Shown: positions 10,940 through 40,400 of the stretch, one piece after another
Numbering within the stretch: the first letter of the stretch is position 1
How the letters are laid out: the number at the start of each line of letters is the position of its first letter
DNA from: an uncultured archaeon
GTDB lineage: Archaea; Asgardarchaeota; Lokiarchaeia; Sigyniarchaeales; SOKP01
DNA length: 64,000 bases
Direction of reading: 5' to 3'
Assembly (NCBI GenBank): GCA_964493715.1
Contig: CAZBPC010000002.1
Location: forward strand, 64,001-128,000
Notes under the pieces: generated by a model
Told to the model about the DNA's origin: nothing
Seen by the model: the letters and a program-made list of their open reading frames with translations, nothing else
Databases searched by the model: none
Program-made: the position numbers and the translations under genes

Positions 10940-11776
10940 ATGAGCTTAGTTAAGTTTCATAATTTTTATTTTCGGTATAAAGGAAATGAGATCTATGCTT
11001 TAAATGATATTAATTTATCAATTGAAAATGATAAATTTATATTATTGGCTGGAGAAACCGGTTCAGGAAAGACTTCCTTAATACGGTGTATGAATGGGTT
11101 AATTCCTCAATTTTATACAGGGTATTATAAAGGGTGTGTTGAAGTTCAAGGTAGAGAAACGACATCAACATCTATCGCAGCTCTCTCTTCTGAAGTAGGA
11201 GTTGTTTTTCAAAATCCTGAGAATCAGTTAATTACAATGAATGTAGAACATGAACTTGCCTTTGGATTGGAAAATATTGGAATTTCCCCTAAAATCATTA
11301 AAGATAAAATCCAAGAGGTTGTAGAATTAACTGAAATTAAGAATCTTTTATCTAAAGCTCCATTTGAATTAAGTGGTGGAGAACAGCAAAGAGTTGCAAT
11401 TGCTTCTATTTTAATATTAGAACCAAAACTCATCATTCTGGATGAACCGACTGCTAGTTTGGATCCCCTATATGCTCAAAAAATTATTAGCTTATTAAAA
11501 AAAATACAAGAAGAAAAAAAGGTGACCATTATAATTAGTGAACATAGATTAGATTTACTTATATCTTTAATTGATGAGATTATTTTAATGAAAGAAGGAA
11601 GGGTTCTTATTCATGACTCAACAGAAAAGGTATTAGAGAGTGAGGTTTTCGATAATTTGAATATAAATAAACCTATAATTTATTCGATCTTTAATCAATT
11701 AAATGTATACCAAAAATCAATCCCTTTTTCTCTTGATCAAGCATTAAAAAGGTGCGCTCTTAAAAATGGTAAATGA
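10940..11776 (+). CDS. ecfA1: ECF transporter ATPase A
   Basis: Walker A GETGSGKT, FQNPENQ, LSGGEQQR, ILDEPT. Confidence 0.92.
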   Translation: MSLVKFHNFYFRYKGNEIYALNDINLSIENDKFILLAGETGSGKTSLIRCMNGLIPQFYTGYYKGCVEVQGRETTSTSIAALSSEVGVVFQNPENQLITMNVEHELAFGLENIGISPKIIKDKIQEVVELTEIKNLLSKAPFELSGGEQQRVAIASILILEPKLIILDEPTASLDPLYAQKIISLLKKIQEEKKVTIIISEHRLDLLISLIDEIILMKEGRVLIHDSTEKVLESEVFDNLNINKPIIYSIFNQLNVYQKSIPFSLDQALKRCALKNGK

Positions 11777-12620
11777 TATTAATTCATTAATACGCTTTCA
11801 AGATGTTAATTTTTCCTACCCCAATGGAACGATAGCATTAAAGGAGATAAATCTTAAAATTAGTAGAGGTGAAAAAATTGCAATTATGGGGCAAAATGGG
11901 GCAGGAAAAACAACTTTAATTCGAATGTTAAATGGATTACTTCGACCTACATCTGGTCGAGTTTTGATTGAAGGAATTGATATCATTAATTCTACAATAG
12001 GTTCATTATCAAAAAAAGTAGGTATTATATTTCAAAATCCTATGCACCAATTATTTTCAAATACTGTAGCAGAAGAAATTAAATTTTCCTTGAAGAGTTT
12101 GGATTTAGGTAAAGAAGAAGTAGAAGAGAAAACTAATACTATTTTAAGGGAGTATGGTTTTGAAAAATATGCGGATCATTCACCAATGAATTTGTCTGGC
12201 GGTGAATCAAAAAAATTAGCGAATGCTTCAATTATGTGCCGTGATCCGGATGTTTTGGTCTTTGATGAACCAACTCTCGGTCAAGATGCTAATGAAATTA
12301 AAATTTTTCTAGATATGCTTGAAAAAGAGGGTAGGAAGAAAAAAACAATAATAATGGTTACTCATAATGTAGAATTTGCATTTGAACATGTTCCACGAGT
12401 AGTTTTAATGACTAACGGAAGAATTCTCGCAGATGGACCTACAACCAGATTATTAACTAATGAAACTCTTGTTCATCGTTCCTCATTAATATTACCTCAA
12501 GTTTTTAGGTTAAAATTAGGGTTGAAAACCCTAGGATTGGAAGTACCCGATAATGTAATAAATCAAGCAGATATGGTAAAATTCCTCTCTAACTATTTTG
12601 AGACGGAAAGTAAGAGGTGA
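11766..12620 (+). CDS. ecfA2: ECF transporter ATPase A'
   Basis: GQNGAGKTT, FQNPMHQ, LSGGESKK, VFDEPT. Confidence 0.92.
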   Translation: MVNDINSLIRFQDVNFSYPNGTIALKEINLKISRGEKIAIMGQNGAGKTTLIRMLNGLLRPTSGRVLIEGIDIINSTIGSLSKKVGIIFQNPMHQLFSNTVAEEIKFSLKSLDLGKEEVEEKTNTILREYGFEKYADHSPMNLSGGESKKLANASIMCRDPDVLVFDEPTLGQDANEIKIFLDMLEKEGRKKKTIIMVTHNVEFAFEHVPRVVLMTNGRILADGPTTRLLTNETLVHRSSLILPQVFRLKLGLKTLGLEVPDNVINQADMVKFLSNYFETESKR

Positions 12621-18638: not shown

Positions 18639-19214
18639 ATGTCTGAAAAAGCCAAAGAAATGGAAGAAGAATTTTCATTCAAATGTCCTATTTGTAATAG
18701 TGGAACGATCGAAATAACTAAAACAGTTTATGATATGACTGACGGAGACAAGATGCTAATTGTTAAATTTGAATGCAATAAATGCACGTTTATAAAAAAT
18801 GACGTGGTTCCATTAACAACTAGAATTGAACCCGGAATTATATCATTACAGGTGATGAATGAAAATGATCTCAAATCTAAAGTTTATCGTTCACCAGTTG
18901 GCATATTAGAGATTCCTGAATTAGAAGTGTCAGTGGAACCGGGTCCACGTGCAGACTTTTATTATACAAATATAGAAGGAATCTTGGAGCGATTTCAGAA
19001 AGCAGTGCAAATTTATCGAAATGATCTTGATGAAAATGAAGAAAAACAAGCAGAAATCGATGAAATATTAAATAATATTGATAAAGCTATGAAGGGTGAT
19101 TTTAATTTCACCTTAAAGATAACTGATACGGGTGGAGGTAGCTATATAATTCCTCAAGATGAATCAAAATATTCCTTTCAAAAAATAGATCTTCCTTTAA
19201 CCATGGATGAGTAA
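18639..19214 (+). CDS. ZPR1 zinc-finger protein
   Basis: CPIC...CNKC, IPELEVSVEPGP, TNIEGILER, FTLKITDTGGGSYI. Confidence 0.9.
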   Translation: MSEKAKEMEEEFSFKCPICNSGTIEITKTVYDMTDGDKMLIVKFECNKCTFIKNDVVPLTTRIEPGIISLQVMNENDLKSKVYRSPVGILEIPELEVSVEPGPRADFYYTNIEGILERFQKAVQIYRNDLDENEEKQAEIDEILNNIDKAMKGDFNFTLKITDTGGGSYIIPQDESKYSFQKIDLPLTMDE

Positions 19215-19652: not shown

Positions 19653-20609
19653 ATGGGTGCACTTTTTGGGCTTCATAATAATTACATGCCAAATAATAGG
19701 ATGTATAAAAATTGTAAAAAAATTATAGCTAAAAGTACTTTAGATGAAATGCGAGTTAATTTCAAAAAAAATATTGAAAATTACACAAAGAAATTTCCAC
19801 ATTTGGTAGAGTTATTATTATTGTTTCATTCTGAAATTTTGAAATTTATTAATGAATATGAGATAATTCTTCAACCAAAACCTACTCCAGATTATCAAAT
19901 GTTCAATCACCATCCTAATCTTAAAAGAGATTATTTTGAAATAATTGATACATATGAAAAAGCGTACTGGCTTGGATTTCTATTTGCTGATGGATGGATA
20001 GCAATAGAACATAAAAAATCTGGAGATTATTATCGAATGGGGCTCCAATTATCATATAAAGACAAGGATGTGCTTCAGAGGTTTTGTAAAAGTATTGGAT
20101 TAAATCCTAAATATATAAAAAATCGTCTTGTTGGAAGTGATTTTAGCACAAAATTATATCATATAGGTGAAATTAGATGGGGAGATCAAAAAATAGCTCA
20201 AGATCTTGTAAAATTAGGGATAATATATGGATACAGTGAACAAAAAGGAAGGCGCGTTAAAACCCCTAGACTTCCAATACTACAGAACCGAAAACTGATG
20301 TTGGCATTTTTATCAGGTTTCTATGATGGTGATGGCACTCTTGGATTTGATAAGAAGACAGGCAAAATTCGTCCAAGAATTGCCTCTTCTGAAATAGACT
20401 TTTTACATCAAATAAAGCAATATTTCGGAATAAAGTATCAAATTTCTACAACAGAAATGGTTAAATTTAATATAAGAACAGAGAAAATGGTTAATATAAT
20501 AGGTAGTAGACTAGATGTTGATAAAGAAATATTTAAAGAAATGTTAAGTATATTTAAGAATAGTCTTGAAAGAAAGAGAGTTCCAATAGATTTCTTTAAT
20601 GAAAAATAG
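19653..20609 (+). CDS. Free-standing LAGLIDADG homing endonuclease-like protein (two motifs)
   Basis: KAYWLGFLFADG and LAFLSGFYDGDG motifs; frame is open upstream to 19392 without a standard start codon; no intein motifs and no interrupted host gene. Confidence 0.82.
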   Translation: MGALFGLHNNYMPNNRMYKNCKKIIAKSTLDEMRVNFKKNIENYTKKFPHLVELLLLFHSEILKFINEYEIILQPKPTPDYQMFNHHPNLKRDYFEIIDTYEKAYWLGFLFADGWIAIEHKKSGDYYRMGLQLSYKDKDVLQRFCKSIGLNPKYIKNRLVGSDFSTKLYHIGEIRWGDQKIAQDLVKLGIIYGYSEQKGRRVKTPRLPILQNRKLMLAFLSGFYDGDGTLGFDKKTGKIRPRIASSEIDFLHQIKQYFGIKYQISTTEMVKFNIRTEKMVNIIGSRLDVDKEIFKEMLSIFKNSLERKRVPIDFFNEK

Positions 20610-20693
20610 CAAGTTTTTTTTATAGATTGCTTTCTTATTAAAATTGTAAGTATTTAGGAGAAAAATTTGAATAGAATTAAAAAGGTAGATTTA

Positions 20694-21880
20694 ATGGCTA
20701 AAAATGTAAAGCGAATAGGAATTTTAACGGGTGGTGGAGTTTCATTTAAGATACATCTTTTTGAACCACAGACTGTCCCGGATTAAATTCAGTGATTTAT
20801 GGGATAATGCTGAAAGCTTACGATGCGGATGTAGAATGCGTAGGAATTCTAAAAGGATGGAAAGGTTTTGTTGAAAATTTAACGATTCCCTTAAACATTG
20901 CAGAACATGACGATCTTCATACCAAGGGAGGGACAATATTGTATACAAGTCGTACTAATCCATTTAAAGGAGTTGAGGCTAAAGAGGAAAAAGCAAAGCA
21001 ATTAACTAATCAATTCAATGTGTTAGGTATAGATGCATTAATTGCTATCGGTGGAGATGATACTCTTGGAGTAGCAGATACCATGTATAAAATTGCTAAT
21101 GCAAATGTAGTAGGGGTTCCAAAAACGATAGATAATGACTTGAAGGGTACTCATTACACTTTTGGGTTCTGGAGCGCTGTACAATTAGCTTCTAATGCGA
21201 TGGATAATCTCACAACAACCGCACGTTCACACCAGCGTGTTTTTGTAGTTGAGATTATGGGAAGAGATGCTGGTTTTTTAACCATGTATAGTGGAATTTC
21301 AGCAGGAGCTGATATAATATTGGTTCCTGAAACCCCCTTTAGTTTAGAAAAAGATATTGTTGACGTACTCAAAAAAAGAGCTAATGCTGGGTATAAATAT
21401 CACATCATTGCCACATCTGAAGGAGCTCATCCTCATATCGATTCATTAAATCGAGATTTCAAGACAATTTCAAAGGAAACAATTGATAAATTACCTAAAG
21501 ATACATTTGGGAATCCTTTATTAGCAAAGTTAAACATTTCACAAATTATCGTTGATGAATTAAATTTAAGAGACGATCTAAAAGAAGTATTTCTCCAAAA
21601 TGACGTCGAATTCGAATGCAGGAGCGTAGTTTTGGGACATACAATGCGAGCTGGAACACCTAATTCGTTCGATAGAATTTTGGGATTGAGATTTGGATTA
21701 GCAGCCATGAATATGGTTTTAGAGTCTAAATTTGGGAACATGGTTTCGCTTCAAGGTAATAAAATTAAAACCATGCCGCTTTCGGAAGGGGTAAAAAAGA
21801 AATATATTACCTCAGATAGTGATAAAATGGAATTAAGAGATTTACTTGTAAAAGTGCGGTATCTATCGAAACAAAAATAG
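20694..21880 (+). CDS. pfkA: 6-phosphofructokinase (PfkA family, probably PPi-dependent), join(20694..20739,20772..21880), 384 aa after splicing
   Basis: Exon 1 MAKNVKRIGILTGGG joins DCPGLNSVIYG to give the GGGDCPGLN motif; GGTILYTSR, GGDDT, PKTIDND, EIMGR, LGH..R. GGDD + PK signature suggests PPi use. Confidence 0.93.
20740..20771 (+). other. Putative bulge-helix-bulge (BHB) mRNA intron, 32 nt, in pfk
   Basis: Central helix GTGG(20734-37)/CCAC(20766-69); bulges AGT(20738-40) and AGA(20770-72); inner stems TTCA/TGAA and AAGA/TCTT; cuts AG^T and AG^A rejoin GGA G|AC TGT CCC. Confidence 0.85.
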
Positions 21881-22090
21881 AATTTTACGTCATTTTTTAT
21901 ATTTATCCGAACTGCTTTTCTTCTTCCACATCGCTATCAAGAGTATTTTTCTCTAAATATCTGTCAAGCCCATTTTACGTTAGAATACCACTTCCAGAAG
22001 GGGTAAAAAAGAAATATATTACCTCGGATAGTGATAAAATGGAATTAAAAGATTTGCTGGTAAAAGTTAGAGATTCATCTAAAAAATTAA
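21773..22090 (+). repeat. Diverged direct repeat of pfk 3' end (21773-21880 vs about 21985-22090)
   Basis: GAAGGGGTAAAAAAGAAATATATTACCTC(A/G)GATAGTGATAAAATGGAATTAA occurs twice, 212 bp apart; second copy reads IPLPEGVKKKYITSDSDKMELKDLLVKVRDSSKK. Confidence 0.93.
21903..21978 (-). pseudogene. Remnant of acyl-CoA dehydrogenase 3' end
   Basis: Minus strand reads KW(+1 nt)LDRYLEKNTLDSDVEEEKQFG*, matching [23 protein letters not shown] at the end of 23345..24589. Confidence 0.8.
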
Positions 22091-39776: not shown

Positions 39777-40400
39777 ATGATAAATTTGCTATTATTCTTA
39801 ATTTTAAATAATAGTTATACTAAATATAATAAGAAAGATATTGATATAGGCAATACCCCTCTTGATGTATATAAATTATGCTCTGGAATCCGAGAATTTT
39901 TTTGTTTATCCTACGCAATAAGGAAGAGTAACATATTATATTTATACTTTCATTCAGATCTCAAAATTATTAAATTAGATGGATCTAAACTAAGATTTTT
40001 AGGATCAGATGAACGATCTCAAGCATTATTATTATTAAAAGCATTAGAGAAATCGAGCACCTTAATTAATGAAAAATGGGAGAGATCGACTCCGGGTATT
40101 TATATGATGAAATTATTAAAACCGCTAAATATTGATTGGCTTATTAAGAACTTGAGTTTTGAACGGATTTTCTTAATCAATCAATCAAAAAATTTTTGTC
40201 TCCAAAATGAATTTAATAATAATAATTTCACATCCCAAGATCTTTTTATTATTGTAAACGATTTAGGTGATGAATTTGTAAGAGAATTGTTTGATAATAT
40301 GGATTCCTCAACTAATATAATACAAATAAGCTTTTCAGGAATAAAATCTTTAGAAAACAAAATATTATATATTAATTATCTACTAGATCAACTAAAATAA
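39777..40400 (+). CDS. TrmY-like SPOUT protein (divergent)
   Basis: LDV...FCLSYAIRK, LRFLGSDERS resemble TrmY N-terminal motifs; next to srp54; C-terminal SAM-binding knot not recognisable. Confidence 0.55.
   Translation: MINLLLFLILNNSYTKYNKKDIDIGNTPLDVYKLCSGIREFFCLSYAIRKSNILYLYFHSDLKIIKLDGSKLRFLGSDERSQALLLLKALEKSSTLINEKWERSTPGIYMMKLLKPLNIDWLIKNLSFERIFLINQSKNFCLQNEFNNNNFTSQDLFIIVNDLGDEFVRELFDNMDSSTNIIQISFSGIKSLENKILYINYLLDQLK

Follow-up and report, generated by a model that had tools for sequence, protein, structure and literature searches.

A probable bulge-helix-bulge intron in the phosphofructokinase gene of a Lokiarchaeal archaeon

A broken reading frame in a phosphofructokinase gene

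The window analysed here is a 64,000-nucleotide (nt) stretch of DNA, positions 64,001 to 128,000 of contig CAZBPC010000002.1 (C2), from the assembly of an uncultured Lokiarchaeal archaeon (3.68 Mb in 160 contigs; genome labelled G000). It is AT-rich, with a G+C content of about 31%, and carries a phosphofructokinase (PFK) gene whose reading frame is interrupted close to its 5′ end by 32 nt at positions 20740–20771. These 32 nt are probably an intron of the bulge-helix-bulge (BHB) type in the precursor messenger RNA (pre-mRNA) of a PfkA-family PFK, a reading to which we assign a probability of roughly 85%. It is supported by comparative and structural evidence, from which we infer the actual cutting and ligation and the enzymes responsible for them.

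The initial annotation of this DNA, made from the sequence without database searches, had placed the insert at these positions, behind an ATG at 20694, and had derived an unspliced product of 30 amino acids ending at the TAA at 20784–20786; all of these coordinates proved correct. The program-made listing of open reading frames (ORFs) gives the same unspliced frame from the TTG at 20667, as a product of 39 amino acids. The last codons ahead of the insert are three glycine codons, followed by a lone G at 20739, and downstream of the insert the coding text picks up as ACTGTCCC at 20772. The long ORF extends from the GTG at 20792 to 21880 and encodes 362 amino acids. Its match to the Pfam family PF00365 is strong (E = 2.9e-78) and covers only positions 18–276 of the profile, which is 277 positions long.

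The initial annotation had also held that the ORF from 20792 is devoid of an essential N-terminal loop, and this is confirmed by comparison with the intron-less orthologue L044. The L044 protein, which begins MTIKKIGILTGGGDCPGLN, covers PF00365 positions 1–276, and the residues filling positions 1–17, unmatched in the 362-residue ORF, are KIGILTGGGDCPGLN; exon 1 of the window encodes residues that align there. The best solved relative of L044 is the 6-phosphofructokinase 44xa_A (E = 2.1e-140), in which the Gly-rich loop is also found. By these matches the gene is a PfkA-family PFK, and its exons, once joined, would give a full-length PF00365 match that includes the N-terminal Gly-rich loop.

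The insert is genuine DNA. A contig spanning positions 20500–20879 with 0 differences and 0 gaps was found in three of the four sequencing runs compared, all three being independent salt-marsh runs; in the fourth run the contigs fail to bridge the insert. A related contig in the same three runs aligns from 20770 on, and ahead of that point it reads as an exon 1 free of the insert; this contig, from a co-occurring relative, shows the predicted join point. Assembly error as the cause of the insert was ruled out by the contigs of the three runs and by the many independent metagenome-assembled genomes (MAGs) described below.

Orthologous loci with and without the insert

The PFK locus of the window was compared with the closest 80 loci in the genome collection (81 loci in all), which come mostly from Promethearchaeota/Lokiarchaeia MAGs; the titles of the 80 name Promethearchaeota or Promethearchaeia MAGs, with a few other Asgard labels. 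One record, L048, is entitled Nanopelagicaceae bacterium yet has a Lokiarchaeal-type PFK locus with 86% identity to that of the window, and it is probably a mislabelled record or a mis-binned contig.

The insert is missing from 63 of the 81 loci, which read GGNGGNG/AYTGYCC across the predicted bond (marked by the slash); one locus, L033, is N-masked here. At the other 18 loci an insert stands at exactly this bond. The window's insert is 32 nt long, and the 17 others measure 31 nt. The cuts proposed in the initial annotation, after G20739 and after G20771, yield the protein motif GGGDCPGLN and are the only ones that give the join of the 63 intron-less orthologues. The insert-bearing alleles do not form one clade and are scattered over the PFK gene tree. 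An excess of identity among them is restricted to about 15 nt on each side of the insertion site.

The codons around the bond differ sharply between the two classes. Gly13 is GGC in 17 of 18 insert-bearing alleles against 3 of 62 insert-less ones, Gly14 is GGC in 17 of 18 against 9 of 62, Gly15 is GGA in 18 of 18 against 33 of 62, and for Asp16 the codon GAC has 17 of 18 against 11 of 62. The insert-bearing alleles are related to each other, which makes these counts non-independent trials. The exon bases forming the motif are synonymous sites that are constrained only in insert-bearing alleles.

The exons of the insert-bearing alleles evolve under purifying selection, with mean p-distances of 0.153, 0.056 and 0.46 at codon positions 1, 2 and 3, respectively (153 pairs). 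In-frame stops that an exon-only alignment indicated in L042 and L080 were artefacts, the exons of both being open on recheck; L108 was likewise flagged by that alignment. A length difference of 27 nt in a divergent PFK clade was considered as a further intron and rejected, since it is a coding insertion rich in Lys and Glu.

These data bear on the simplest alternative, in which the gene is inactivated and carries the insert as neutral or decaying sequence, or in which a truncated enzyme is made from the GTG at 20792. The frame is indeed broken as written and the 362-residue ORF has a GTG start available, and a relic of the PFK 3′ end just downstream of the gene (see below) points to a past rearrangement at the locus. 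Such a product, however, would be without profile positions 1–17, the seat of the Gly-rich loop. Exon 1 of the window, with its start codon, is intact, and so is the remaining gene, as the initial annotation had maintained; among the insert-bearing alleles, divergence at codon position 3 is 8 times that at position 2. The pseudogene explanation fails because start codon, exons and motif, the last with one geometry in 18 of 18 alleles, have been kept in alleles scattered over the gene tree, and we consider it very unlikely.

Geometry of the predicted fold

Archaeal splicing endonuclease (EndA) cuts after the second base of each 3-nt bulge, two bases past the 4-bp helix that separates the bulges. 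To count as canonical at the PFK site, a BHB had to have a central helix of four Watson-Crick or G-U pairs and two bulges of 3 nt, with the first outer pair and the first two inner pairs also formed. All 18 insert-bearing alleles conform to it, and the expectation of the initial annotation that orthologous insertions would keep BHB geometry is therefore upheld.

Pairing and covariation were scored on the 16 distinct sequences into which the 18 alleles collapse. The central-helix cells are paired in 64 of 64 cases, and a U-A pair in the window replaces the C-G pair of the other 15 alleles, a compensatory change of the kind that the initial annotation had proposed to look for by aligning orthologues. 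In the alignment model, where one bulged base is included, 97.5% of outer-helix cells are paired, and for the inner helix the figure is 87.5%. Over the whole BHB model 93.4% of the pairs are formed, against 32–52% when the 3′ partners are slid by 1–3 columns. Double changes occur at 4 pairs, compared with a mean of 1.6 in shuffles, of which 7 out of 500 reach 4. The first two inner pairs are changed on both sides in two of the 16 alleles, those of the window and of L045. The insert of L045 has its ends in common with that of the window but a different inner stem, of 9 bp, and its minimum free energy (MFE) fold is a textbook helix-bulge-helix-bulge-helix (z = -3.0).

The MFE fold of positions 20720–20790 contains every pairing listed in the initial annotation except the single pair G20733-C20773. 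The outer helix that it had drawn is present in its CGGG/CCCG portion and is otherwise poor and irregular in the window allele. On this model the motif of the window is best called slightly relaxed, owing to the irregular outer helix.

Several observations weigh against a BHB intron at this position. In the window allele the outer helix beside the 3′ bulge consists of one G-C pair followed by an irregular stretch. The fold energy is ordinary (z = -0.18, with 77 of 200 shuffles as good, and 0.01), so that the single-sequence folding advocated in the initial annotation gives no thermodynamic signal for the motif. Only 4 of the 16 alleles (L003, L045, L078 and L110) have the central helix and both bulges in their MFE folds; in those of several others the outer helix and the inner hairpin form and the central region is open. 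An unconstrained RNAalifold consensus consists of a competing 6-bp helix shifted by 3 nt, a register that is possible because exon 1 reads as a GGC GGC GG repeat. The same repeat lets some of the covarying changes suit both registers, and the covariation rests mainly on two divergent alleles (L003 and L045) among related sequences. The second PFK insert described below is only a relaxed motif, its central helix being 68% paired, with a constant G-A mismatch and no double changes. A genome-wide scan combining the BHB motif with ORF fusion (232,084 motif matches) did not exceed decoys whose 3′ site had been slid, from which it follows that such introns are few and that a scan of this kind cannot single out the true cases. 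The number of RNA runs among the 24 listed sequencing runs containing the stretch is 0. Finally, the RtcB gene of the host is itself interrupted, and a supply of the ligase would need pre-existing protein.

Regarding the two registers, the BHB register alone puts both cuts two bases past a 4-bp helix, and it alone fits both the window and L045. For chance, geometry is a better yardstick than energy: 232,084 of the 779,102,100 (i,j) pairs of the genome (2.98e-4) satisfy a lenient BHB rule, and only one (i,j) pair restores the orthologue join.

The position of the join also bears on whether the insert could be skipped in translation. Ribosomal bypass is known from T4 gene 60 and from the byps of yeast mitochondria, and a programmed frameshift would be another route. 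The size of about 30 nt and the hairpin resemble bypass elements, and the window's intron ends in G, which places a GAC triplet already in the unspliced RNA. In the 15 distinct 31-nt alleles, however, the insert ends in C or T and the Asp codon arises only when the G of exon 1 is joined to the AC of exon 2. Even in the window, GAC is preceded by ACA and not by a triplet matching the take-off codon GGA. Frameshifting would lengthen an invariant loop by about 10 residues, and the second PFK insert holds in-frame TAA and TAG codons. Skipping in translation is accordingly regarded as the least probable explanation, with hardly any weight left to it, and the BHB intron as the preferred one.

Splicing machinery and proposed mechanism

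Judged by domain content, the host encodes both a splicing endonuclease and an RNA ligase. Two EndA paralogues were found (C5:37733–38356 and C58:18440–19057), each with a PF01974 catalytic domain and a PF02778 N-terminal domain. Their neighbours in the PDB are crenarchaeal EndA chains; one paralogue is closest to heterotetramer chains and the other is more distant. RtcB is encoded in two pieces (PF01139 match of 484 bits). ARAGORN called 27 transfer RNA (tRNA) genes in the genome and assigned introns of 11–39 nt to 12 of these; within the 64-kb window no tRNA gene was detected by the scan, and no Rfam family at the gathering score. In the available text of one study, the Asgard EndA is described as an (alpha-beta)2 enzyme, with an L1 loop linked to a broad substrate range (PMC5829648).

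In the mechanism that we propose, the pre-mRNA would fold so that GUGG of exon 1 pairs with CCAC of the intron, forming a 4-bp helix with a 3-nt bulge at either end, the two bulges lying on opposite strands, and with the intron hairpin on one side of this central helix and an exon-exon helix on the other. A heteromeric EndA built from the two paralogues would cut after G20739 and after G20771, and RtcB would then ligate the exons and re-form the Asp codon (G/AC). The join would restore the N-terminal GGGDCPGLN loop and lead to a protein of about 382 residues. Nothing in this analysis points to regulation of the splicing.

Neighbourhood of the gene and possible DNA-level mobility

The coordinates of the gene, of the elements of the predicted fold and of two neighbouring features are collected in Table 1.

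Table 1. Features of the PFK locus and its surroundings, in positions of the window
Feature	Position	Strand	Remarks
PFK exon 1	20694–20739	+	ATG, 15 codons and first base of the Asp codon; counterpart of the opening 46 nt of intron-less orthologues in the alignment
Proposed BHB intron, phase 1, 32 nt	20740–20771	+	missing in 63 of 81 loci; 31-nt counterpart at the same bond in 17; in contigs of three DNA runs
PFK exon 2	20772–21880	+	last two bases of the Asp codon to stop TAG 21878–21880; contains the ORF from GTG 20792
Outer helix (h), exon-1 side	20728–20733	+	CGGG 20728–20731 with CCCG 20777–20780 in MFE fold; irregular in window allele
Central helix, 5′ strand, GUGG	20734–20737	+	pairs with 20766–20769 in MFE fold
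5′ bulge, A-G-U	20738–20740	+	MFE fold; proposed cut after G20739; begins A-G in 18 of 18 alleles
Inner hairpin (h′)	20741–20765	+	MFE fold; UUCA 20741–20744 with UGAA 20762–20765; AAGA 20748–20751 with UCUU 20756–20759, closing loop UACA
Central helix, 3′ strand, CCAC	20766–20769	+	MFE fold and alignment
3′ bulge, A-G-A	20770–20772	+	follows from the central helix; proposed cut after G20771; merged into a 7-nt unpaired stretch in MFE fold
Outer helix (h), exon-2 side	20773–20780	+	MFE fold and alignment model
Free-standing LAGLIDADG endonuclease-like ORF, 318 amino acids	19653–20609	+	Pfam PF14528, E = 2.3e-8; PF00961, E = 1.8e-5
Relic of PFK 3′ end	21985–22067	+	90% identity to 21773–21855; about 100 nt past the PFK stop

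Between the conserved upstream gene, which ends at about 19190–19205, and PFK lies a segment of about 1.4 kb that is missing from most loci and that includes the LAGLIDADG ORF. Homologues of this ORF occupy the same place in three other loci, as an intact copy with 72% identity in L063, a frameshifted copy in L078 and a remnant of 50 amino acids in L082. On the other side of the gene, the relic shows, when translated, 80% amino-acid identity to PFK residues 327–361; it is confined to the window's locus among the 81 and may be the scar of an allele replacement by recombination. The arrangement suggests mobility of the PFK 5′ region at the DNA level, perhaps together with the endonuclease.

This leads to an explanation that complements the intron rather than competing with it, in which the insert is mainly a DNA-level element that interrupts the recognition site of the adjoining LAGLIDADG endonuclease and spreads with it, splicing making the insert tolerable. 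The four loci with a LAGLIDADG ORF or remnant 5′ of PFK (L003, L063, L078 and L082) are all insert-bearing, and insertions of at least 490 nt occur 5′ of PFK in 7 of the 18 insert-bearing loci against 2 of the 63 others; the patchy presence of the insert on the gene tree and the 3′ relic of the window are also in keeping with it. On the other hand, 11 of the 18 insert-bearing loci have no large upstream insertion, the insert-less locus L102 carries what appears, as judged by eye, to be a remnant of the same cassette, and the narrow identity excess around the insertion site leaves no extended co-conversion tract. Spread at the DNA level as the main nature of the insert is rather unlikely, and a link between the endonuclease and the PFK intron, drawn from small numbers, is offered tentatively.

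Inserts of the same kind in other genes

A second site within PFK carries a 30-nt insert with in-frame TAA/TAG codons in the IGG/DDT (GGDD) motif. It is present in 15 of the 81 loci (L042, L049, L052, L057, L068, L070, L074, L078, L080, L082, L083, L086, L091, L092 and L096) and absent from the window. The exon words are as at the first site, with GGNGGAG before the insert and ACGAT after it, and the fold has an invariant outer helix of 5 bp and an inner helix of 7 bp.

The only RtcB gene found in the host genome (C2, about 10967–12309, minus strand, outside the window; L113, L247) lies in two frames, the pieces being 29 nt apart (insert at about 12136–12164). The MFE fold of this 29-nt insert is a canonical BHB, with a central UUGG/CCAA helix, bulges AUA and AGA and an inner stem of 9 bp. 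The insert interrupts GGVGY/DINCG and is present in 2 of 29 aligned loci of the genus; in the other 27 the predicted bond is where the sequence is joined. RtcB, expected to seal introns of this kind, thus seems, from the gene sequence, to need splicing of its own mRNA. A blastn-short search of the genome with the PFK and RtcB inserts found no further copy of either. The idea of a repeat or mobile element was dropped; a 19-nt identity on contig C35 falls in ordinary coding sequence.

The proteasome alpha gene (C4 19721–20465, plus strand; L246, L248) is interrupted by 31 nt (20108–20138) that fall between positions 98 and 101 of the Pfam profile; the site is occupied in 3 of 30 aligned loci of the genus and empty in 27. 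The three inserts show compensatory changes in the inner stem and a central swap of U-A to A-U, in a central helix of only 3 pairs. Their ends resemble those of the window's PFK insert.

A thiolase-like gene (C120 3237–4524, plus strand; L298 1040–1160) contains a 31-nt insert in the Thiolase_C_1 domain, which it divides into profile positions 1–48 and 50–143. This insert is a canonical BHB, with outer and central helices of 4 bp and two 3-nt bulges. A second thiolase-like gene (C28 22068–23316, plus strand; L299) consists of four open pieces separated by three short AT-rich breaks, one of them at the HDCFT site of the C120 gene; a convincing in-frame BHB was found at the third interruption only. 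With 48% GC in a genome of 31% GC, the C28 gene may be foreign or a binning contaminant, and it was left as doubtful and not counted among the firm cases.

Cuts were assigned at six sites, and at five of these (the two in PFK and those in RtcB, proteasome alpha and the C120 gene) the insert lies in codon phase 1, as read by eye from the joins. These five inserts are 29–32 nt long and most of them follow a G-rich exon word (GGNGG or UUGG). The shared phase and G-rich context might reflect a preference in the choice of insertion site, or the central helix may require one strand to be G-rich. The cbf5 gene of the host genome is uninterrupted.

Split genes were sought by tblastn with the ORFs from 2.4 Mb of an out-group genome (G032); 903 of these ORFs, covering 55% of that genome, had strong hits. 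The real splits recovered were those of RtcB, proteasome alpha and the two thiolase-like genes; PFK was recovered only by a terminal-exon search, with a score of 46 against a decoy maximum of 44. The remaining candidates were discarded on inspection: C102 and C40 are in-frame coding insertions, C105 is a scaffold gap, C23 (about 39996–40260) and C24 (about 19554) are conserved spurious frames in GC-rich rRNA-like sequence, C23:37367, C63 and C27 are ordinary N-termini, and C3 93560–93720 showed no obvious split on viewing. The reverse search, in which G000 ORFs supplied 993 strong queries and the target was 2.0 Mb of G032, produced no insert, its two candidates being continuous coding insertions. 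Inserts of this kind are therefore rare, at roughly one in 200 conserved genes, in line with the lack of an excess in the genome-wide motif scan.

A broader and more speculative picture, which we think rather unlikely as a whole, is that EndA-type mini-introns of about 30 nt form a small population that is actively gained and lost in the protein-coding genes of this Lokiarchaeal genus, touching at least four genes in one genome, RtcB among them, and residing preferentially after G-rich codons. In it, the PFK copy may co-spread at the DNA level with a free-standing LAGLIDADG homing endonuclease whose target the insert interrupts, that is, by collaborative homing of a BHB intron.

Discussion

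The evidence supports the presence of a predicted protein-coding BHB intron in a lineage and a class of host gene that are both new for such introns, with companions in the same genome. As far as the literature was searched, archaeal protein-coding introns rest on a single case, cbf5 (2002, Crenarchaeota), and the PFK insert would be one of very few of its kind. A literature search that covered neither subscription papers nor supplements returned no report of BHB introns in Asgard protein-coding genes. If the reading is true, the tRNA-splicing machinery of Asgard archaea would also mature mRNAs, among them the messages for a central glycolytic enzyme, for the proteasome and for the RNA ligase. 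Such genes are truncated or split by gene callers, as with the 362-residue ORF, which is devoid of the catalytic N-terminal loop; in metabolic reconstructions based on Asgard MAGs they can be mistaken for broken or absent genes. The system offers a tractable means of studying the gain, tolerance and loss of protein-coding introns in the lineage nearest to eukaryotes, and of testing whether splicing can gate enzyme production.

The closest known parallel is the BHB intron in the pre-mRNA of crenarchaeal cbf5, which encodes a pseudouridine synthase and was reportedly described by Watanabe et al. in 2002 and by Yoshinari et al. in 2006. Like the PFK insert, it is a short BHB-type intron in an archaeal protein-coding gene, in hosts with a two-subunit EndA, and its presence varies among relatives. 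PFK differs in being a glycolytic kinase of Asgard archaea (Promethearchaeota) and in that several genes of this genus carry such inserts; moreover, splicing of cbf5 has reportedly been shown by experiment, whereas that of PFK is predicted from sequence. The cbf5 intron of Crenarchaeota is given as a protein-coding BHB intron in the accessible part of Yokobori et al. (2009, PMC2738675).

The second parallel lies in archaeal tRNA introns, which have the same motif, the same presumed enzymes and, at 11–39 nt in this genome, a similar length; in the case of PFK, by contrast, the host RNA is an mRNA. Asgard tRNA genes carry a heavy load of BHB introns according to the available text of three sources (bioRxiv 10.64898/2026.10.13.758758; PMC11291895; PMC5829648), and the available text of the first two makes no mention of mRNA introns in Asgard archaea. 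The present case also shares traits with a eukaryotic one, in that both involve a short, non-spliceosomal and frame-changing mRNA intron cut by an endonuclease at stem-loops and sealed by a tRNA ligase. This is the splicing of HAC1/XBP1 mRNA, in which IRE1 makes the cut and RtcB or Trl1 performs the ligation; the nuclease and the RNA motif are different from those proposed for PFK. Work on RtcB in HAC1 splicing is cited in PMC5829648.

Bypass elements, such as those of T4 gene 60 and the byps of Magnusiomyces mitochondria, are hairpin inserts of tens of nt in conserved coding sequence. They depend on take-off and landing codons that match and on the next codon being intact, whereas in 15 of the 16 distinct PFK alleles the insert splits the Asp codon. 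With regard to mobility, a free-standing homing endonuclease gene and an intron close to it take part in collaborative homing in T4-like phages. As at the PFK locus, the endonuclease gene adjoins a conserved gene that bears an intron, and both are patchy in distribution; the phage intron belongs to group I, and the link at PFK consists of co-occurrence in 4 loci only. Were the co-spread true, the closest prokaryotic relatives of eukaryotes would provide a case in which a BHB intron takes part in collaborative homing.

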